DNA of 24,000 nucleotides from an uncultured bacterium (lineage in GTDB: Bacteria; Patescibacteriota; Minisyncoccia; Phycocordibacterales; CAIZIN01), in NCBI GenBank assembly GCA_903933085.1, contig CAIZIN010000047.1, forward strand, positions 2,885 through 26,884, given 5' to 3'. Of this stretch, positions 794 to 17,768 are shown piece after piece. The notes under the pieces were generated by a model. The model did not search any database. It had not been told where the DNA came from and was given only the letters and a program-made list of their open reading frames with translations. Made by a program: the position numbers and the translations under genes. How positions within the stretch are numbered: position 1 is the stretch's first letter; every line of letters starts with the position of its first letter.

Positions 794-2122
794 ATGAACA
801 ATACAGAACACAAGGCAAAACAAGTAGAAAGCAAAGCAGAAAATACAAACGTTGAAGTTGAAGAACTATCACCAACAAAAGAAAGGCTTCGTCGCATAGA
901 ATCCATTGATCATCAACTCAATGGCTTAGTTGATGTGCCGAAATCAAAAGTGGAAATCGAAGAAATTCAAAACATTAAGGAGGTAGAATACACGACTGAA
1001 CTTGATAAATTAGAAGCAGGTCTTGGCCAACCCCTTTCTGAAGAAGTTAGAGATAAAATCCATAAAAATATGGTAAATAGCCCTACTGAAAAAGCAGAAG
1101 AAAAGGGCGAACAATATGACCGACTTATGATTGAGAAAATAGTTTTAGAAAACATAGAAAATCCTGACTTCAAGAATAGGGTCTTTCCGTTGGGGAGTGA
1201 AAATGTTACTCAGAAAACTTTTCAGAACGGATTAGACAAACTTTTGGATGCAGATATCGCCTTACCAAAAGCAGATAGAATCCGATTATTCAAACAAACA
1301 CTAGAGTATTATTCAAGCCCAGTTATGACAGAAAAACCACTTTGGCATTCTACAAGTTCTTATACATTACGAAAATGTTTGGAGGACGGACTATCTGGCG
1401 GGCACGGAAAATTTTCTGGAGAAGCAGGCTCTACAAACAGTAGTGACCAAACACAAAAGGGCTTATCTGTATCTCATCCCAATTATCCATCAGCTGAAAC
1501 ATTCCAACAATTATTTGCAAGATTGAGTGCTAAAAAGAAGGGGCTAGCAAATTATTTAGAGATCGATTCCGAAAAAATAACAGGAAAAACCCTACCTGAA
1601 GTGTTTGTTGCTGAATTATTCAATACAACAAGTCATGAAGAGATGAGGGAGATATTGGCAAAAAGAATGAAAATGAAAACAGATCAAATTGATGATGAAA
1701 TGATTAAAAAAGGAATAAGTGAAGAAGCTCAAAAAGCTTGGATCGATTACTTTAATAAACAAGAATATCCTCCAATAAAAGAAGAGATAGAAGGAAAAAT
1801 ACTTCCAACCATATCGAATGAAAAATTGCGACAAGAATTACAGTTTGAGGTAAATCACCCTTTCCCATGCATGATTACCTTAGAGTCATCAGGCAAAGAG
1901 CAACATCTTACTAGTGTATCTAGGGGCGAAAAAGCAACCCACATTCCTTTTGAAGATTTTTATTGGGATACTTTTCAAGGCGAAGATATTCGCGAAATTC
2001 GCGTGCCAGAAAATCAGACCAAGAAAGTTAGTGGCTGGCTTGAAGAAAAAGGCTTAGTCGGAATTAAAATCGTTCCCTTAGAAATTTTTGAAATAAAAAG
2101 AGTAATACAAAATAGTATTTAA
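794..2122 (+). CDS. hypothetical protein, 442 aa
   Basis: Long uninterrupted ORF directly downstream of the NUDIX gene. Antisense ORFs inside it are short and low-complexity. No motif recognised. Confidence 0.7.
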   Translation: MNNTEHKAKQVESKAENTNVEVEELSPTKERLRRIESIDHQLNGLVDVPKSKVEIEEIQNIKEVEYTTELDKLEAGLGQPLSEEVRDKIHKNMVNSPTEKAEEKGEQYDRLMIEKIVLENIENPDFKNRVFPLGSENVTQKTFQNGLDKLLDADIALPKADRIRLFKQTLEYYSSPVMTEKPLWHSTSSYTLRKCLEDGLSGGHGKFSGEAGSTNSSDQTQKGLSVSHPNYPSAETFQQLFARLSAKKKGLANYLEIDSEKITGKTLPEVFVAELFNTTSHEEMREILAKRMKMKTDQIDDEMIKKGISEEAQKAWIDYFNKQEYPPIKEEIEGKILPTISNEKLRQELQFEVNHPFPCMITLESSGKEQHLTSVSRGEKATHIPFEDFYWDTFQGEDIREIRVPENQTKKVSGWLEEKGLVGIKIVPLEIFEIKRVIQNSI

Positions 2123-2613
2123 CCATGTAAATAATTGTCTACCTGTTCAAAGGAAGTCATTCTGATTACCTTATCTTCATAAGGAGCAAGCATCTCCTCG
2201 AAACTTTCTAGCTTTTTATTTATACCAAGCTTATATTTCTTTTTGATTTGATAGATAATCAGATCAAATAAATTTTTTAAATTTTCATTATCTCTACTTC
2301 TATTCCTTTTATAAAGAACCCAAATTTGATGAAAAATATTCTTATAGGTTAGATAAAATATTTTATCTGCTTTTGGCATACCAATTTTAAGCATTCGACG
2401 AGTTCCTCCTTCTATAATCCACTCGTCTTTTTCAAAAACTTCTTTTGCCATCTCCACATCTTTTTCTTGTCCGCGAGGTTTTGAAAATTTTACTTCCCAG
2501 AAAAAATCATCTGTGGAATATTTTGGAATGCCTAGTTTTTCTGAAAGCTTTTCCGCAAAAGTAGTTTTCCCTCTTCCCGCATCACCAATAATTATAATTT
2601 TTGAATCTTTCAT
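2119..2613 (-). CDS. P-loop NTPase, adenylate-kinase / topology-modulation (FlaR)-like
   Basis: Walker A motif IIIIGDAGRGKTT near the N-terminus. I prefer the ATG at 2613 (MKDSKIIIIG) over the track start at 2637, because 2621-2631 reads ATGTTATATAAT on the minus strand (a -10 element) just upstream of that ATG. Confidence 0.75.
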   Translation of the reverse strand: MKDSKIIIIGDAGRGKTTFAEKLSEKLGIPKYSTDDFFWEVKFSKPRGQEKDVEMAKEVFEKDEWIIEGGTRRMLKIGMPKADKIFYLTYKNIFHQIWVLYKRNRSRDNENLKNLFDLIIYQIKKKYKLGINKKLESFEEMLAPYEDKVIRMTSFEQVDNYLHG

Positions 2614-2635
2614 TTTGTGTATTATATAACATAGC

Positions 2636-2669
2636 AAATAAAAAAGCGCCGTACCAAAAGGTCGTGCGC
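2636..2669 (-). terminator. Rho-independent terminator closing the ribozyme-containing operon
   Basis: Minus strand reads GCGCACGACC-UUUU-GGUACGGCGC followed by UUUUUU. The 34-nt sequence is identical to 6937-6970. Confidence 0.6.
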
Positions 2670-2693: not shown

Positions 2694-3272
2694 TCAGCGA
2701 GGTTTCTGAATACCTAACCCGCACCCAGACATGAGTTTAATGTGCGTTTCAAGATCTTGACGACCTTCTTCGGTATCTAATCCTAATATTTTTGAAGTTC
2801 GTTGAGCTAAATTTTCTTCATAGATTAACTTCGCTCTTTTTTCTTCTTTTTTCTTTCTTTGTAAATCTGTCTCTGGGTTACCTCGTTTGATAAACCTTAC
2901 CCATTTCTTCTCTATTTTTGAATGATGAGATTCAAACTGTCTATGATTCGCTACTACACAGCATGCGTACACGCAACTTGCATTATAGTTTTCAGAACCA
3001 ATAGCCCAAAACTCACCGGACTCGAGCGGAGGAAATAATTTACAAAGCTCATTATTACTTTTACACTTCTCAACCGCAGTTATAATGTCTTGATAATGAG
3101 GAAGTCTGATCGCTGAATGCATTCCAGCAATCTCAATAGCTTCAAGCCATGTCATCTTTTGAGGTTCGGTTGATAACCATACCTCTCCGGGATACAAGCA
3201 GAGATCGAAGTTTTCAAGAGACCGATCGTCGCAAAAATCTTCTTGGCACATGTAACTGTATAGAATATTCAT
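2694..3272 (-). CDS. hypothetical protein, 192 aa (weak resemblance to DUF1566/Lcl-type lectin-fold domains)
   Basis: ORF with an ATG 28 nt downstream of hammerhead 1. The MTWLEAIEIAG...IRLPHYQDI pattern resembles the TWxEA...RLP signature. This similarity is judged by eye only. Confidence 0.65.
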   Translation of the reverse strand: MNILYSYMCQEDFCDDRSLENFDLCLYPGEVWLSTEPQKMTWLEAIEIAGMHSAIRLPHYQDIITAVEKCKSNNELCKLFPPLESGEFWAIGSENYNASCVYACCVVANHRQFESHHSKIEKKWVRFIKRGNPETDLQRKKKEEKRAKLIYEENLAQRTSKILGLDTEEGRQDLETHIKLMSGCGLGIQKPR

Positions 3273-3300
3273 ATTTTCCTTTCTTTTTCAATGTACTATT

Positions 3301-3364
3301 CTGTTTCGTCTTTTTCACACACTCGTGAGAGAGACTCATCAGTCCACCTCACAGATGGAGACAG
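3301..3364 (-). ncRNA. type-III hammerhead ribozyme, copy 1
   Basis: Minus strand: CUGUC | UCCAUC-UGUGA-GGUGGA | CUGAUGA | GUCUCUCUCAC-GAGU-GUGUGAAAAAGAC | GAAACAG. Full core is present (C3-A9, G12-A14, A15.1:U16.1, GUC triplet). Stems I and II are closed and stem III is open. Predicted cleavage after the C at plus-strand position 3360. Confidence 0.85.
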
Positions 3365-3366
3365 TA

Positions 3367-3394
3367 CCCCACATCGCGTAAGCGCGATGTGGGG
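3367..3394 (-). other. 12-bp GC-rich hairpin immediately 5' of hammerhead 1
   Basis: CCCCACAUCGCG-CUUA-CGCGAUGUGGGG on the minus strand, 2 nt upstream of stem III. No U-tract follows. Confidence 0.7.
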
Positions 3395-3458
3395 CTCCTT
3401 TATCATTAATAAAGGAGAATAATCTTAAAACAATCTAGATTTTCAAACAGAAACTATC

Positions 3459-4061
3459 CTAAATTCGAATAAATGTACGAACTTTTTCACTGTACCAACC
3501 CAACATTTGCATTTTTTCGACAAAAGGCTTGAACTGTTCTTTGCTCGTGATTAAAACTACATCTAGAGCCCTCCAGAATCCAGGCACTTTGTAGACAATG
3601 TCTGGTAGCATTACCGAACGGCTATGTCGATCCACTTCGGTTGTAGAACTCGTATAACACAATGTAATAGCAACTATTCCTTGTGTTGAAGGTATTCTTA
3701 CAAAAAAGAGATTACCTCCCTTCCAGTCTTCCAACAGTGGTCCTCCCGTCTTTTTTTCTACACCAGAACTCATTTTGAGCATAAAAACAATGTCGTGGAG
3801 CGTATGAATCGAAGATCGTGAGTTAAATAACTTACTCAACTCTTCGAGTAGCACTTCTCTATTATCTGAAATTTTTATGTCTAGTCCACATAGAACATGT
3901 TTTTCTTGTGGACCCTCAGTCTCTCCACCAAATAATTGCTTAAAAGGAGACACGTTGTTTCCGTCTCCATTCTGAAATGGCATATTGGTCTTATACTTAT
4001 CTTTTTCGACGCTCGGTATTCTGATAGATTCATTTGATTCTGGAATTGTTATCGCGTTCAT
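3459..4061 (-). CDS. hypothetical protein, 200 aa
   Basis: ORF with an ATG 26 nt downstream of hammerhead 2. No motif recognised. Confidence 0.7.
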   Translation of the reverse strand: MNAITIPESNESIRIPSVEKDKYKTNMPFQNGDGNNVSPFKQLFGGETEGPQEKHVLCGLDIKISDNREVLLEELSKLFNSRSSIHTLHDIVFMLKMSSGVEKKTGGPLLEDWKGGNLFFVRIPSTQGIVAITLCYTSSTTEVDRHSRSVMLPDIVYKVPGFWRALDVVLITSKEQFKPFVEKMQMLGWYSEKVRTFIRI

Positions 4062-4087
4062 TTATTTGTTGTTTTCAATGTACTATT

Positions 4088-4152
4088 CTGTTTCGTCTTT
4101 TTCACACACTCGTGTGATTGACTCATCAGCCGGAGAAACTACTCCGGGACAG
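4088..4152 (-). ncRNA. type-III hammerhead ribozyme, copy 2
   Basis: Minus strand: CUGUC | CCGGAG-UAGUUU-CUCCGG | CUGAUGA | GUCAAUCACAC-GAGU-GUGUGAAAAAGAC | GAAACAG. The core is identical to copy 1 and stem I is fully compensated. Predicted cleavage after the C at plus-strand position 4148. Confidence 0.85.
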
Positions 4153-4168
4153 TGATTTGTTTTTTAAA

Positions 4169-4200
4169 GGAAATCGACGAGCGAAGTGATTATGATTTCC
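4169..4200 (-). other. hairpin upstream of hammerhead 2
   Basis: GGAAAUC...GAUUUCC 7-bp stem with an 18-nt loop, lying between the HIT gene stop (4217) and the ribozyme. Confidence 0.5.
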
Positions 4201-4216
4201 CTAATCCCTTCCTTCT

Positions 4217-4642
4217 TTATGTATTTAAGGGCGTAGGTTGGGCAAGAAAAATCGCGATATCTTTATCGCGTTTAGTTTCGACCAGTCTTTCTTTCAATGT
4301 CAGCAAGTGTAAGTGATGATGCATCGGTATGGATTTTAGTTTTATACTGTTTTCTATGATTACGTCGTAGTCTTCTTGTGCCTCCATTTTTATTTTTTTG
4401 TATTCTTTTATTTCTTTGTTTGTTAAACCACCCTCAGTTATGTGACGCTTTGGTGCTATGATGTGACTTTTGCTAGCGATCTCGTCGTAAGGAAATTCAT
4501 TTTCGACCACCTTCCAGTATTTATATTCTTTTAATGATTTTGATGAGCAGAAGAAGCACTTTGGCAGTGTTCCTGCTTTTATTTGCTCTTCGTATTTGAA
4601 GAGAGTTTCTGGTGTTCTTAATGTTTTTATTTTTCTTATCAT
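4217..4642 (-). CDS. HIT (histidine triad) family protein
   Basis: 141-aa ORF with the HHHLHLL histidine-triad motif and an upstream CFFC motif typical of HIT proteins. Confidence 0.8.
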   Translation of the reverse strand: MIRKIKTLRTPETLFKYEEQIKAGTLPKCFFCSSKSLKEYKYWKVVENEFPYDEIASKSHIIAPKRHITEGGLTNKEIKEYKKIKMEAQEDYDVIIENSIKLKSIPMHHHLHLLTLKERLVETKRDKDIAIFLAQPTPLNT

Positions 4643-4708
4643 CTTTTAATTCCACTCTGCGTTTTTTCGGACTTGTGACCGTCACCTTTTATTTGTTTTT
4701 GGTGGTCG

Positions 4709-4741
4709 CATTAAAATTGGAGGATGTTTTAATTCCTCCAA
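4709..4741 (-). terminator. terminator-like hairpin between the small ORF and the HIT gene
   Basis: Minus strand UUGGAGGA-loop-UCCUCCAA (8 bp) followed by UUUUAAUG. It may be an attenuator or stabiliser rather than a full stop, because no promoter is seen before 4642. Confidence 0.45.
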
Positions 4742-4749
4742 GAGTCGGG

Positions 4750-4926
4750 TTACCTCTTCCCCATGACCTCGTCGAAGCGTTCTCCAAATACCTTTTTAAG
4801 GAGTATTTGGTGACACTCGGTGTTCCATCTCTCGGCAACGCGACAGCTCTCGAGTTCTTCTGGGTCTGGTATGTGGTAGGCTTCACCTTCGAGATCAGTA
4901 AATTCGTCAGCATGGATGGTTGGCAT
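4750..4926 (-). CDS. small hypothetical protein, 58 aa (below the ORF-track size cutoff)
   Basis: ATG at 4926 lies 25 nt downstream of hammerhead 3. My translation is MPTIHADEFTDLEGEAYHIPDPEELESCRVAERWNTECHQILLKKVFGERFDEVMGKR*. It looks more protein-like than the overlapping 104-aa track ORF, which would start inside the ribozyme. Confidence 0.45.
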   Translation of the reverse strand: MPTIHADEFTDLEGEAYHIPDPEELESCRVAERWNTECHQILLKKVFGERFDEVMGKR

Positions 4927-4951
4927 GGTAGTGTGGGGTTGTAAAGAACGC

Positions 4952-5015
4952 CTGTTTCGTCTTTTTCTGCCACTCGGCAGAGAGACTCATCAGTCGGAAT
5001 CACATTCCGAGACAG
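4952..5015 (-). ncRNA. type-III hammerhead ribozyme, copy 3
   Basis: Minus strand: CUGUC | UCGGAAU-GUG-AUUCCGA | CUGAUGA | GUCUCUCUGCC-GAGU-GGCAGAAAAAGAC | GAAACAG. The core is intact. Stem I and distal stem II covary relative to copies 1 and 2. Predicted cleavage after the C at plus-strand position 5011. Confidence 0.85.
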
Positions 5016-5017
5016 AA

Positions 5018-5034
5018 GCAGGGGTAGAACCTGC
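5018..5034 (-). other. hairpin immediately 5' of hammerhead 3
   Basis: GCAGG-UUCUACC-CCUGC on the minus strand, 2 nt upstream of the CUGUC. Confidence 0.5.
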
Positions 5035-5084
5035 TAATTTGTTTCAGTTTCAGGAAGTTGTTTCTCCCTTTCCGAGACTGGAGG

Positions 5085-5456
5085 TCAATCCCAAGGGCGA
5101 GGTCCGTCTATCCTCACTCCTCCGCGTGGACCAATCCACACTTTGAGTTTGATTCCCTCAAACTCCGCCTCGATGGATCCACCCTTCTGAGTGACTCCAT
5201 GCTGGTCAAGAATCTCTCTTGCCCAGTCTTTTCTCCGTTGGTAGTAGGCAATTTGCCCGCTCGCGAAGATGTTACTCTCTTCGTTTCTACCAACCCGAGC
5301 CTCGAACTCGGCACCGCAGTCCTCGCATCGGACTTTTACATCGATTGTGCGAGCTGCAGTTCCGAAGCAGGGGGTTTCTGTAAGTTCAAAACCTACAGCT
5401 GTCCCACCGCATCGGCAGGTTCGGGTGACGTCTTCTGGCTGGATTACTGTTTGCAT
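5085..5456 (-). CDS. zinc-ribbon protein, 123 aa (CxCG...CxxCG)
   Basis: I start at the internal ATG at 5456 (MQTVIQPEDVTRTCRCGG...VRCEDCGAEF). The track's N-terminal extension to 5585 runs through the AT-rich promoter region. The segment is GC-rich, which explains the many overlapping shadow ORFs. Confidence 0.6.
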   Translation of the reverse strand: MQTVIQPEDVTRTCRCGGTAVGFELTETPCFGTAARTIDVKVRCEDCGAEFEARVGRNEESNIFASGQIAYYQRRKDWAREILDQHGVTQKGGSIEAEFEGIKLKVWIGPRGGVRIDGPRPWD

Positions 5457-5505
5457 AGTGTTGTTGGGGTGGTTGGTTGTGAATGTGCTGTTTGTTCTGA
5501 AGATC

Positions 5506-5579: not shown

Positions 5580-5607
5580 TTGCATATTTTTAGGGATATT
5601 ATATAAT
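5580..5607 (+). promoter_or_regulatory. candidate sigma70-type promoter for the TrmB-like gene
   Basis: TTGCAT, 16-nt spacer, TATAAT; about 30 nt upstream of the ATG at 5638. Confidence 0.4.
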
Positions 5608-5637
5608 ATAAATGTGTAACAAAAAGTTTCACTTTCT

Positions 5638-6372
5638 ATGAATAAACAACAAATATTGCAAAAAATAGGACTAAATAAGGACGAAAGTGCTATTTATCTA
5701 GCTCTTTTAGAGCTTGGTCCGTCCCATATTTCTACAATTTCGGATAAGACAAAAATCCATAGACCCCTTATTTACAAGGCTATTCCTTCCCTTTTGGAGA
5801 AAAAACTCGTAACACAAACACATAAAGAAAAAACTATACTTTATGTAGCGGAACCGCCAAACAGGCTTGAATCAATTTTTGAGGACCTGAAACTTGATTT
5901 ATTCGAGATTCTTCCAGATTTGGAGGATATATATGTGACAAATACAAAGAAAGGAATAAAAATAAGGTTTCTAGAGGGTCAAAGTGGCACAATGAGAGTT
6001 TTTGATGATGTTGTACGAAGTTTAAAGAAAGATGAGACCTTCTACCGAATAAGTTCCAACAAAGACGGACAAGAAAAAAGAGATAAGTATGTACCAAGAA
6101 ACTACAGCAGAATCCGCGACTCAAAGAAACTTCAGAGAATGGTTATCACAAACGAACAAACTGCGGAACATAAAGAAGATAAACTAGATAGATTTATAAA
6201 AGTAATGCCAAGTGACTTTGGTCTATTTGACCATAATGTTACACAAATTATCTACGGAGACAGAGTTGCGTTTATAGATTATAATTCAGAGACAGCCTTA
6301 ATAGTTGAGAGTAAAGCCATAGCCGACTTTCAAGCTCATGTTTTCAAGAATTTTTATAAAAAACTAAATTAA
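5638..6372 (+). CDS. TrmB-family HTH transcriptional regulator
   Basis: N-terminus LNKDESAIYLALLELGPSHISTISDKTKIHRPLIYKAIPSLLEKKLV is a TrmB-type winged helix. The gene is divergent from the ribozyme operon. Confidence 0.8.
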   Translation: MNKQQILQKIGLNKDESAIYLALLELGPSHISTISDKTKIHRPLIYKAIPSLLEKKLVTQTHKEKTILYVAEPPNRLESIFEDLKLDLFEILPDLEDIYVTNTKKGIKIRFLEGQSGTMRVFDDVVRSLKKDETFYRISSNKDGQEKRDKYVPRNYSRIRDSKKLQRMVITNEQTAEHKEDKLDRFIKVMPSDFGLFDHNVTQIIYGDRVAFIDYNSETALIVESKAIADFQAHVFKNFYKKLN

Positions 6373-12482: not shown

Positions 12483-13172
12483 CTATTTAGCGCCATACTT
12501 GCACTGATTTTCCACATCCCGAACAACTCTTAGACGTTGATACGAAATGCGAACCGAGTTTGCCGCACTGATACAAACATCTAGCCTGAGACTCAATGAA
12601 TCGCCTATTATACACAATTCCTCAACTTCTCGAACTGTGGAATATGGGCAGCCGCTCGCAAACTGCAATGATTGCTGAAAAAATAGGAGTTTCTTCACCA
12701 AAATTATCAATGTTTCTCGAATACCTGACTCTGTTAAAACCCCACGGCTTCTAATTGTTCCGGCACGAAGATCAGCCGGATCAAGCACATCAATCACCTT
12801 TTCAAAGGCATCGAGCTTTTGTTCTGCTTCTGATATAATTTTGTCTAGTTTGTTAGTTTTGCGGATTACCAATACAAGCGCAGTAACAGGTGGCGACATC
12901 AAAATAATCAAGTAAAGGGTAGAATATAGAACTCTGATTATTGATTCCTCGTTTGTAATGATAGGCCGTATAATCAAAACAATAAATGCGGCGAGACAAT
13001 ACAACGTAAGCCCGACAAGCCAAGCTCTCCAAATGAATTGAATTTTCTTAATCGCCTTAACCATTTCCCCAAACTCTTCCCGAAGGTTGATGTTGAAGTT
13101 TTTGCTGTAAGATTCTTGCAATGTGATAGCCACAGAATCAAGCAGTTTCTTGTATTTTTCAATCATATTCAC
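12483..13172 (-). CDS. hypothetical membrane protein, 229 aa (two predicted TM helices)
   Basis: Hydrophobic segments WLVGLTLYCLAAFIVLII and LYSTLYLIILMSPPVTALVLVI. The track start at 13172 is GTG; an ATG two codons in (13166) is an alternative start. Confidence 0.7.
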   Translation of the reverse strand: MNMIEKYKKLLDSVAITLQESYSKNFNINLREEFGEMVKAIKKIQFIWRAWLVGLTLYCLAAFIVLIIRPIITNEESIIRVLYSTLYLIILMSPPVTALVLVIRKTNKLDKIISEAEQKLDAFEKVIDVLDPADLRAGTIRSRGVLTESGIRETLIILVKKLLFFQQSLQFASGCPYSTVREVEELCIIGDSLSLRLDVCISAANSVRISYQRLRVVRDVENQCKYGAK

Positions 13173-13849: not shown

Positions 13850-14635
13850 TTATTCCTTACAAACTTCCCACATTCGTTCCCACAAAAGCTGTTGTAAATT
13901 GGCAAACTCCATACTATGTACAACAAAAGCAATCTTTTCCTCGCTCCCGCTCGCAAAAAGGCATTTATCTCCATATATCCAATAGCTCATATGCCAATCA
14001 GTACCTTTTGGTGCATAGCGTTTTTTATTTAGTTTGTTGGCTGGATCTTGTTTTAGCCATTCATGTCCTTCTTTTTCTCTCAAAGGTCGGTCTCTCTCTG
14101 GCTCTATCACATTTACCCGAACATCAAGCTCAATACCCGGTTTTCTATGATCAAACAAAAATTCTACTCCTAGCATTTCTATCATATCGCTAGTTGGCCA
14201 CATTAAATAGGCTTCTTTATATTCACTATTCCAAGACATGTCGCGAAAGGCCTGTTTGATCCCTTCGACTCCAGAATAAAACTTTATTCTAGGCCGTGCA
14301 GTCTGGCTTTTCTTATTATGTCGCGCTATAAAATCAACAAGTTCGGCCTGAGCATTTTGTAATTCTTCAATTTTTTGCTTGTGAATACGAACAATTTGCT
14401 CATTATCAGATATTGCAAAGGTTTTCCCTCTATCTTCACTGTATTCTGTGACCAAACTTTTCTCAATTAGTTCATTAAGTGAGTCATACACGGAAGATTT
14501 CGGCATATTGAGCTTGGAAGCAATATCCGAAGCCCCCATTGTGCTTTCTTCCGATAGGGCAATAAGCACCCTTTTTGATGCAGGTTTTAACCCTAAGATT
14601 CCTAATGTTTGATTTATATTAATTTCTTTTTTCAT
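13850..14635 (-). CDS. TrmB-family HTH transcriptional regulator
   Basis: N-terminus LKPASKRVLIALSEESTMGASDIASKLNMPKSSVYDSLNELIEKSLV is a TrmB-like winged helix. Length and layout resemble the ORF at 5638-6372. Confidence 0.8.
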   Translation of the reverse strand: MKKEININQTLGILGLKPASKRVLIALSEESTMGASDIASKLNMPKSSVYDSLNELIEKSLVTEYSEDRGKTFAISDNEQIVRIHKQKIEELQNAQAELVDFIARHNKKSQTARPRIKFYSGVEGIKQAFRDMSWNSEYKEAYLMWPTSDMIEMLGVEFLFDHRKPGIELDVRVNVIEPERDRPLREKEGHEWLKQDPANKLNKKRYAPKGTDWHMSYWIYGDKCLFASGSEEKIAFVVHSMEFANLQQLLWERMWEVCKE

Positions 14636-17382: not shown

Positions 17383-17413
17383 TCAAAGAAAAACTCGCTA
17401 CGAAAGCGAGTTT
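17383..17413 (-). terminator. Rho-independent terminator after the 115-aa zinc-ribbon gene
   Basis: Minus strand AAACUCGCU-UUCGU-AGCGAGUUU followed by UUCUUUG. Confidence 0.7.
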
Positions 17414-17420
17414 GGAATTA

Positions 17421-17768
17421 TTAGCAGGGACCAGCACCACCTGAGCAATGCCCACCTGTACGGCGAATCCATCGACGAAGTGGGTCTCTGTCATGCTCAT
17501 ATGGATCATAAAACGAAGACCGAGACACGGGAGCCGGGATATCTTCTGGATTTTTCATATGTTCCACTAAATGTTTGTAAGGTTTCTTCTCGATAAGAGA
17601 TTCCCAATTATTTAAAAGGGTTTCCCAAGAGTGGCCCCATGAAGCAAAATTGATTTTCTCACCTCCACATTTGCATAAAAGAGAGTAGCAATACCCTTTG
17701 AGATAGGTATTTTCCTCAGGAATACGACCGCATCTGCAAGGTATTGGCGTTCTTTTTTCTTCACTCAT
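17421..17768 (-). CDS. zinc-ribbon protein, 115 aa, Lar (restriction-alleviation)-like pattern
   Basis: I start at the ATG at 17768 (MSEEKRTPIPCRCG...). The pattern PCRCG-x19-CKCGG...LLNNWES resembles the CPFCG...CxxCG...AWN layout of Lar-family proteins. This assignment is by eye only. Confidence 0.6.
   Translation of the reverse strand: MSEEKRTPIPCRCGRIPEENTYLKGYCYSLLCKCGGEKINFASWGHSWETLLNNWESLIEKKPYKHLVEHMKNPEDIPAPVSRSSFYDPYEHDRDPLRRWIRRTGGHCSGGAGPC

Follow-up and report, generated by a model that had tools for sequence, protein, structure and literature searches.

The window, as the whole stretch of DNA analysed is called below, comprises 24,000 nucleotides (nt) of contig CAIZIN010000047.1 (positions 2,885 to 26,884; assembly GCA_903933085.1) from an uncultured bacterium assigned to the Patescibacteriota. 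Five consecutive genes are read on its minus strand between positions 5455 and 2694, and three of the four gaps between them hold a type-III hammerhead ribozyme (hammerheads 1, 2 and 3 in the order of reading). The fourth gap is occupied by a type-P1 twister, so that every gap among these genes holds a predicted self-cleaving ribozyme. The four ribozymes lie within 1.7 kb, all on the same strand as the genes that they flank. The initial annotation of this stretch had described the three hammerheads; its count is right for these and incomplete for the locus, where the twister and seven further hammerheads just past window position 1 have to be added. Unless a related locus is named, coordinates are window positions, and the ribozymes and the operon are read on the minus strand (Table 1).

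Structure and covariation of the ribozymes

All three hammerheads show the same order of elements, as the initial annotation had stated: CUGU, C17, a closed stem I of 6-7 bp, CUGAUGA, G10.1, stem II, C11.1, GAAA and ACAG. Stem III, formed by CUGU and ACAG in each window copy, is open, and stems I and II are closed by loops, which corresponds to the type-III topology. The catalytic core (C3-A9, G12-A14, A15.1-U16.1 and a non-G at position 17) is intact in each of the three copies, and the stem I sequences are those reported at first. Stem II consists of a 3-bp helix, an internal loop (UC/AAAA or AA/AAAA), a 6-bp distal helix and a GAGU cap. The claimed siting on the sense strand of intercistronic gaps was re-measured, and the distance from the end of the ribozyme to the next ATG (4926, 4061 and 3272) is 25, 26 and 28 nt for hammerheads 1, 2 and 3, respectively. 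Cleavage is predicted 3' of C17, found at 5011, 4148 and 3360, which would create new 5' ends at 5010, 4147 and 3359. The pattern CTGATGA-N8-38-GAAAC occurs three times in the window against 0.13 expected, and none of 100 shuffles reached three occurrences.

One detail of the initial annotation needs correction: the distal stem II of hammerhead 3 (CUCAC/GUGUG, 3364-3301) contains one U.U mismatch. This mismatch was considered as a mark of a chimeric hammerhead 3, and the idea was dropped, since it can equally be a single A-to-U change from the common CACAC arm, which is present in the related locus L006. A tract of 43 nt is identical between the units of hammerheads 2 and 3 (Table 1), which indicates that the two recently underwent recombination or gene conversion.

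The twister is the top match of the Rfam scan. It covers the model RF03160 end to end (model positions 1-68; window 4717-4649; 51.5 bits, E 5.4e-9), and sits between the open reading frames (ORFs) of 58 and 141 amino acids (aa), with 5 nt between its end and the ATG at 4642. Its cleavage is predicted between U4713 and A4712. Six twisters were aligned (the window and the related loci L006, L127, L011, L022 and L076) according to the double-pseudoknot pairing scheme of PMC5408937, and 92.9% of the cells of this scheme were paired. Helices P2 and P4 are paired at 100% and P1 at 90%. The T1 contact between L4 and L1 is fully paired, with a middle pair that is A-U in five sequences, U-A in L076 and C-G in the consensus. 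The T2 contact between L4 and L2 is paired at 92%, and one of its pairs is A-U in four sequences and G-C in one, as in the consensus. Both departures of the window twister from the Rfam consensus fall in compensated pairs; its P3 has a long A-rich loop.

Table 1. Features of the ribozyme array and its surroundings (window positions; R1, local covariance model described in the text; L006 and L011, related loci)
Feature	Position	Strand	Basis or remark
Hammerhead 1, type III, long stem II	4952-5015	-	Sequence, Rfam RF00008, local model R1
Hammerhead 2, type III, long stem II	4088-4152	-	Sequence, Rfam RF00008, local model R1
Hammerhead 3, type III, long stem II	3301-3364	-	Sequence, Rfam RF00008, local model R1
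Twister, type P1, not mentioned in the initial annotation	4648-4718	-	Rfam RF03160
43-nt tract, identical copies	4072-4114 = 3285-3327	-	From distal stem II over GAAACAG, ending 16 nt past the ribozyme
Hairpin abutting stem III of hammerhead 1 (AGCAGG...CCUGCU)	5017-5035	-	Conserved in L006
12-bp G+C-rich hairpin, 2 nt upstream of hammerhead 3 stem III	3367-3394	-	-26.5 kcal/mol
Conserved element of the 3' untranslated region, GGGAGAAACAACUUCCUGAAACUGAAACAAAUU	5036-5069	-	Between cassette stop codon and hairpin with hammerhead
Flank motif of GUUCUUU(G/A)AAA type, hammerhead 1, GUUCUUUAC	4936-4948	-	Sequence
Variant flank motif, hammerheads 2 and 3, GUACAUUGAAAA	4072-4087, 3285-3300	-	Sequence
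Cassette gene 1, 123-aa CxxC-rich protein	5085-5455	-	52% G+C (genome, 35%)
Cassette gene 2, 58 aa, no family	4750-4926	-	Found in protein collection
Divergent HIT-superfamily gene, 141 aa, HxHxH motif	4217-4642	-	Weak HIT/DcpS_C/GalT matches
ORFan cassette gene, 200 aa	3459-4061	-	Between hammerheads 2 and 3
Gene of 192 aa, following hammerhead 3	2694-3272	-	47% identity to L011 1015..524
FlaR-type P-loop protein ('DNA topology modulation'), adenylate-kinase-like; gene is the last on the strand	2119-2637	-	NCBIfam PRK08118, E 8.9e-20
TrmB-family regulator, divergent from the array	5638-6372	+	Pfam PF01978, E 1.6e-14
Divergent intergenic region, presumed promoter region for the array	5586-5637	.	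89% conserved with L006

The Rfam gathering scores are 48.5 bits for Hammerhead_3 (RF00008) and 67.2 bits for twister-P1 (RF03160), and a search of the window at gathering thresholds gave no match at all. In E-value mode, Hammerhead_3 matched the three hammerhead sites only, each over the whole model (positions 1-54): 5018-4949 with 41.6 bits (E 4.5e-6), 3367-3298 with 36.7 bits (E 1.1e-4) and 4155-4085 with 31.3 bits (E 3.6e-3). The initial annotation had proposed this check and named the lack of a significant hit as counter-evidence; the E-values proved significant, though below the gathering score. The low hammerhead scores arise partly from the distal stem II hairpin being counted as a 12-nt insertion in loop II. 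Copies with a short stem II (4 bp and a GAAA-type tetraloop) in the same genome also fall slightly under the cut-off, at 42-44 bits. For the twister, the score below the threshold is partly due to the fact that a covariance model is blind to compensated pseudoknot changes.

The three window hammerheads were aligned with 13 others from the same genome and its close relatives, and 99.6% of the pair cells in this 16-copy alignment were standard. Compensatory changes on both sides were present in 13 of the 19 pairs, being distributed over stem I (6/6), proximal stem II (2/3) and distal stem II (5/6), and none of 500 shuffles matched the observed values. As a control, the 3' partners were shifted by 1-3 columns, which lowered the pairing to 31-50%. 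The covariation of stems I and II noted from the window alone is thus supported by the larger set. The core is invariant across the 16 copies but for position 17 of one relative, where C is replaced by U, a permitted change. Stem III (CUGU/ACAG) is the same in 16/16 copies and, because it never varies, is uninformative for covariation. The A-rich 3' side of the internal loop in stem II aligns with the GAAA, UAAA or AAAA tetraloop of the short copies, and the same contact surface between loops I and II may therefore be kept in both forms.

A local covariance model, R1, was built from the 16 copies with a shortened calibration, so its E-values are rough. It scored hammerheads 1, 2 and 3 at 87.9, 87.8 and 78.9 bits and found no fourth hammerhead over the window. 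Taken by core, significant E-values and covariation, the window motifs are type-III hammerheads. The Rfam scores below gathering, together with the mismatch of hammerhead 3 and its alternative fold (see below), could suggest that the motifs are inactive relics or chance look-alikes. This explanation is hardly credible, in view of the compensatory changes, of cores intact in 3/3 window copies and in the local set bar the permitted substitution, of orthologous sites kept in relatives of 80-89% identity and of the chance expectation of 0.13.

Flanks, genes and related loci

The related loci were selected with a relaxed hammerhead pattern designed from the genome of the window. An exact scan for the long-stem II variant yielded none in the viral or genome collections and one 1-kb metagenome contig. 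The relaxed pattern was found in at least 118 genome stretches and in 69 stretches of IMG/VR viral contigs. Among the matches listed, the record titles named Patescibacteria lineages in 78 cases, an unclassified 'bacterium' in 26 and other phyla in 14; since the pattern was built from this genome, the bias towards the candidate phyla radiation (CPR) is suggestive and not measured. R1 gave 238 matches in ~0.9 Mb of related genome loci (among the matches listed), several loci carrying 4-7 copies. The CPR-like context assumed in the initial annotation is indirectly supported by the closest hammerhead relatives and by homologues of two operon genes, all in Patescibacteria metagenome-assembled genomes (MAGs). 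A link between hammerheads and Patescibacteria or the CPR was not found in the searchable literature.

A descriptor search of the related loci produced 195 hammerheads, on which the statistics of spacing and flanks are based. The short stem II is found in 138 of them and the 28-nt form of the window in 18. Neighbouring hammerheads are on the same strand in 60 of 63 pairs, with a median spacing of 750 nt. The ribozyme ends 20-40 nt before the next same-strand ORF start in 63/178 cases, compared with 14/174 in the opposite-strand control.

Hammerheads 1 and 3 are directly preceded by hairpins (Table 1). Near hammerhead 3, there is also a second hairpin (3417-3395, minus strand), and no U-tract follows the 12-bp hairpin on the minus strand. 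Similar structures are common among the related hammerheads, where the mean folding energy of the 36 nt upstream is -9.9 kcal/mol, as against -6.3 for the stretch 60 nt farther upstream and -4.5 for shuffled sequences. A hairpin of -8 kcal/mol or lower stands directly upstream of 121/185 related hammerheads versus 56 in the control, and in 107 of these 121 it is 0-2 nt from stem III. Among the viral loci, 63/87 cases had the upstream hairpin versus 10 in the control, and the gap to stem III was 0 nt in 54/63. The element GGGAGAAACAACUUCCUGAAACUGAAACAAAUU recurs at L001 15617 and 17996, L006 758 and L127 6263. On the 3' side, a motif of the GUUCUUU type begins 1-6 nt past stem III in 57/188 related hammerheads versus 4 in the control. 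It includes a -35-like TTGAAA; a pairing partner for the motif was sought and none was found.

The genes between the ribozymes differ in conservation. The start of cassette gene 1 is placed at 5585 by gene callers; ATG 5455 is the probable start, and homology with L006 stops at 5473. Protein-family searches gave no family match for its product. Its G+C content of 52% suggests foreign origin or unusual constraints, and other cassette ORFs in the neighbouring (second) array also look G+C-rich by eye. For the 200-aa ORFan protein, a homologue search in 5.8 billion clusters returned the protein itself only. The HIT-like gene, by comparison, is the conserved anchor of the array, with the twister before and a hammerhead after it. 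It is found with the same flanking ribozymes in L006, L127, L011, L018 and L128, and a hammerhead directly follows it in at least six lineages. The family of its product counts 466 cluster representatives in an exhaustive search and 3 proteins by word-indexed search. The AlphaFold model has a predicted local distance difference test score (pLDDT) of 91, and the top Foldseek matches are HIT hydrolases; Pfam searches gave no family, and no specific assignment was obtained. The gap preceding the FlaR-type gene contains no ribozyme. Action of the P-loop or HIT-like protein on ribozyme-made RNA ends was considered and found unsupported, the former being FlaR/adenylate-kinase-like and the latter having no specific HIT assignment.

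The TrmB gene stands beside the ribozyme array also in L127 and another relative. Three TrmB paralogues occur in ~25 kb (window 5638-6372, plus strand, and 13850-14635, minus strand; L001 13885-14634, plus strand), and two of them adjoin ribozyme arrays. Elsewhere in the window, there are genes for PNPase, a DksA-like protein, NUDIX, an NYN-domain protein, an XerC/D-like recombinase, Xth and a CCA-adding enzyme. No phage genes were found in the window, PHROG matches being to generic P-loops only, and neither the operon DNA nor the HIT-like protein matched any of 50,697 phage records.

L001 is the contig that carries the window in reverse and runs on past window position 1. There, 1.6-5 kb beyond the window and on the window's minus strand, a second array follows another TrmB gene. 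It comprises seven type-III hammerheads in 3.4 kb (L001 15671-19087, plus strand) and mixes long- and short-stem II copies. The L001 stretch therefore contains 10 hammerheads and one twister within ~10 kb. A near-perfect promoter (TTGACA-17-TATAAT) lies ahead of the second array at about L001 15220-15250. An ORF-less element of ~135 nt is present in nearly identical copies at L001 15729-15865 and 16836-16972 and at L127 10910-11046. This element, which lies directly 3' of short-type hammerheads, folds into a long and imperfect hairpin (-45 kcal/mol) and shows little sequence variation; a match in Rfam was not found. The second array also has a conserved 23-codon micro-ORF, MAYV[V/I]V[D/N]GLVMSL[E/P]EYREYVQSK (L001 at about 17383-17454, L127 11377-11448).

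Comparison with relatives suggests another possible view of the array. The orthologous locus L127 is ~80% identical and syntenic from PNPase onwards; its order is TrmB, hammerhead, twister, HIT-like gene, hammerhead, gene, hammerhead, gene, TrmB and the second array. L006 is 89% identical and holds four hammerheads and a twister in 2.9 kb. The window, L006, L127 and a 5.6-kb relative have in common the ribozymes, their flanks and the HIT-like gene, and their other genes are unrelated. The ribozyme units could thus be chiefly the junctions of a cassette array, with the invariant cores serving as recombination joints and cleavage being secondary or enabling. At the hammerhead 1 site, homology spans the element of the 3' untranslated region, the hairpin, stem I and CTGATGAG and ends exactly at the start of stem II, as would be expected of a joint. 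The 43-nt tract of hammerheads 2 and 3 is identical in otherwise differing units, and one cassette is at 52% G+C in a genome of 35%. In the Saccharibacteria MAG L011, the twister and the HIT-like gene are followed by a hammerhead, by the homologue of the 192-aa gene and by another hammerhead. The two conserved genes are adjacent there, and the ORFan with one hammerhead that stands between them in the window looks like an inserted unit.

The covariation, however, keeps RNA helices intact, which speaks for selection acting on the RNA. Where hammerhead 2 lies, the only difference of L006 from the window and L127 is a fully compensated swap in distal stem II. There is no adjacent recombinase, the only tyrosine recombinase being the XerC/D-like one 13 kb away. 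The comparison covers three or four related loci, and one mosaic stretch (L003, below) may be an assembly chimera. Cassette junctions as the main role are considered rather unlikely. They would also be compatible with processing of the transcript, since RNA cleavage could insulate whichever gene lands. In a combined form, which is likewise held only tentatively, the ribozyme with its 5' hairpin and 3' flank would be a boundary module whose RNA insulates and end-protects the insert (a small gene or a non-coding RNA) and whose DNA core is the joint of cassette exchange. If this were true, the module would be a platform for gene capture and expression working via RNA self-processing, not an integrase, beside TrmB-type regulators.

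Several further observations concern the related loci themselves. L003 49-1353 equals window 4392-3088 over 1305 bp at 100% identity, with unrelated flanks in a 10.8-kb scaffold that bears glycosyltransferase and lasso-peptide-like genes; the boundaries are inside genes, and the stretch is either an assembly chimera or a real mosaic. In L011, two opposite-strand ORFs (219-512 and 795-1064) are identical over ~69 codons, which points to a ~210-bp tandem duplication of the 5' part of the 163-aa gene together with the upstream hammerhead. The ends of the L008 contig within hammerheads were rejected as evidence of cleavage, because they lie at core repeats and not at cleavage sites and are assembly breaks. 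L127 contains at 12758-12836 (plus strand), 25 nt upstream of a hammerhead, a 79-nt minihelix that exceeds the Rfam gathering score for transfer-messenger RNA (tmRNA). It was rejected as a tmRNA: it has only the acceptor stem (with G.U) and the T-arm, lacks the mRNA-like domain and gave no ARAGORN call. This minihelix is absent from the genome of the window.

Proposed processing of the operon transcript

Co-transcriptional self-cleavage of one operon transcript into structured single-gene mRNAs is the preferred explanation of the locus, and its probability is put at roughly 0.7. The genes from about 5455 to 2694, possibly to 2119, would be transcribed together from the region divergent to the TrmB gene. 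The four ribozymes would fold on the emerging RNA and cut it by internal transesterification. The predicted cuts are those after 5011 (hammerhead 1), 4148 (hammerhead 2) and 3360 (hammerhead 3) and, in the twister, the one between 4713 and 4712. A 2',3'-cyclic phosphate would terminate each upstream mRNA; for hammerheads 1 and 3, this end would be just past the hairpin abutting stem III. Each mRNA downstream of a hammerhead would begin with a 5'-hydroxyl on the first base of stem I and carry the near-whole ribozyme, then an A-rich leader of ~25 nt and the start codon. Starting from the first paired base of stem I, it would have no single-stranded 5' tail. The 3' strand of the twister P1 is 5 nt from the start codon, and the initiation region could thus become open once cleavage has removed the 5' strand. 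Small genes that lack promoters and vary between strains might in this way become separate mRNAs with standardised structured ends, each insulated from its neighbours. What the analysis itself establishes is the identity of the ribozymes, their covariation, their positions and the comparative pattern; cleavage in vivo, a single transcript and a stabilising or insulating effect are what these lead us to infer. The reading is favoured by the complete cores, the covariation, the sense-strand ribozymes in each gap, the matching series in L127 and the spacing and hairpins of the related hammerheads. Published triple-hammerhead transcripts are known to cleave both in vitro and in vivo (PMC3088659).

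A number of points weigh against transcript processing of this kind. None of the four ribozymes reaches its own Rfam gathering score. Hammerhead 3 has an alternative fold of -19.3 kcal/mol, more stable than the hammerhead fold (-11.6 kcal/mol). Hammerhead 2 is without an adjacent hairpin. Within 5586-5637, the search for a promoter gave weak sigma-70-like matches only. A terminator-like hairpin with a U-run lies within the 3' end of the HIT-like gene (4270-4253, minus strand), and the genes past it may need read-through or internal promoters; the hairpin could be an attenuator inside the array. The palindrome at 4253-4270 falls in the C-terminal tail of the HIT-like gene, which is poorly conserved; by eye, it seems to be retained in L006. 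Finally, the 5'-OH of the cleaved glmS mRNA triggers decay in Bacillus, as cited in PMC6765202, so cleavage could also destabilise the downstream mRNA.

This last precedent, with the effects of 3'-untranslated-region twisters on reporters summarised in the same paper, would be in favour of cleavage lowering or grading expression. The 5'-OH products would then decay, and the downstream genes would be damped or uncoupled from a strong promoter; small ORFan cassette genes may well need tight limits of expression. This role appears unlikely. The 3' product of the hammerheads would start in a stem I of 6-7 bp without a single-stranded 5' tail, and a paired 5' end should hinder 5'-end-dependent nucleases such as RNase J and RNase E. 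As for the upstream product, the hairpin beside stem III resembles a protector of its 3' end. The ribozymes, moreover, have no ligand-binding domain.

The direct repetition of type-III hammerheads raises another question, namely whether the segments between the cuts are ligated to circles or spliced, as in retrozymes and viroid-like RNAs, the array being a source of circular RNA. Stem III is invariant in the 16 copies and stems I and II vary, so any combination of 3' and 5' ends could rebuild a working hammerhead; this invariance may equally reflect just recent common descent. The possibility was raised by Perreault et al., who sought circles and spliced products and found none (PMC3088659). 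The units consist of ordinary ORFs that have leaders. The window showed no reverse transcriptase, nor did the annotated ORFs include an RNA ligase. Circularisation or splicing is regarded as very improbable, and processing into single-gene mRNAs is retained as the most likely explanation of the array.

Comparison with known systems

The array had been called unusual in the initial annotation, which is overstated. Hammerhead clusters by small non-conserved ORFs, with twisters beside them, are well established in the literature (PMC3088659, PMC6155905, PMC10085705) and common in the related loci. Clusters of hammerheads and twisters flanking such ORFs have been described since 2011; the arrangement is already known in bacteria and phages, and the locus adds another instance. 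The abutting hairpin, the flank motif and a strain comparison at ribozyme resolution were not found in the searchable literature. Together with the link to Patescibacteria, they make a modest addition to the known picture. The role of many bacterial hammerheads and twisters is an acknowledged open question (PMC6765202, PMC6155905, PMC10085705), for which the locus offers a test case and no answer. Its value as a test case comes from four ribozymes of two classes in equivalent gaps, a seven-copy array next door and relatives that retain the ribozymes while the genes change. Any model has to explain, for ~280 related hammerheads (among the matches listed), the fixed distance to the next start codon, the hairpin at stem III and the 3' flank motif. 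Standard Rfam thresholds miss all these ribozymes, and the ribozyme content of CPR bacteria may therefore be under-annotated.

Two or more same-strand ribozymes within a few kb, the usual mark of clustered ribozymes, are found at this locus, and an association with phage or Mu-like genes is not. In 2011, Perreault et al. described several hammerheads on either side of one gene or a short block of genes, whose identity varied, in bacterial prophages (Clostridium scindens, Azorhizobium caulinodans and the ardA locus of Agrobacterium tumefaciens; PMC3088659). As here, those hammerheads flank genes and were proposed to process long transcripts to gene-length mRNAs. Unlike those clusters, the present one is chromosomal, among CPR-like housekeeping genes, with no phage genes or phage-record match. 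Its density is higher (10 hammerheads and one twister in ~10 kb of L001), and all of its hammerheads are of type III, the window copies having a hairpin in loop II.

Twisters and hammerheads share gene neighbourhoods and cluster together, most strongly near Mu-like phage genes, for a reason that is unknown, as stated in PMC6765202 and PMC10085705. The co-location described by Roth in 2014 and Weinberg in 2015, as summarised in these two papers, is repeated in the window, where the twister occupies a gap equivalent to the hammerhead gaps, which suggests that the ribozyme class is interchangeable. In contrast to that phage association, the conserved partner here is a divergent HIT-like gene beside a TrmB-family regulator. 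The glmS ribozyme is likewise a self-cleaving RNA in a bacterial mRNA leader, and its 5'-OH end decides the fate of the mRNA (PMC6765202). However, glmS has a metabolite cofactor, serves one gene and leads to decay, whereas the ribozymes of the array have no ligand domain and precede unrelated genes. In retrozymes and viroid-like circular RNAs, direct type-III hammerhead repeats also bound an RNA unit (PMC6155905). Those units are non-coding, circular and copied via RNA or reverse transcription, unlike the small chromosomal protein genes of the array.

Integron arrays resemble the locus in that promoter-less, strain-variable small genes with short structured repeats between them are read from one end. 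Here, there is no integron integrase, and the sole tyrosine recombinase is XerC/D-like and 13 kb off; the separators are not attC sites but catalytic RNAs under RNA-level selection. The RiboJ-type insulator is an engineered sTRSV hammerhead placed between promoter and gene, which frees the mRNA from the RNA ahead of it and gives it a standard, structured 5' end. The window hammerheads are, like it, of type III and would provide a structured 5' end before the ribosome-binding region; their putative insulating role would be a natural one, whereas RiboJ-type parts are engineered.

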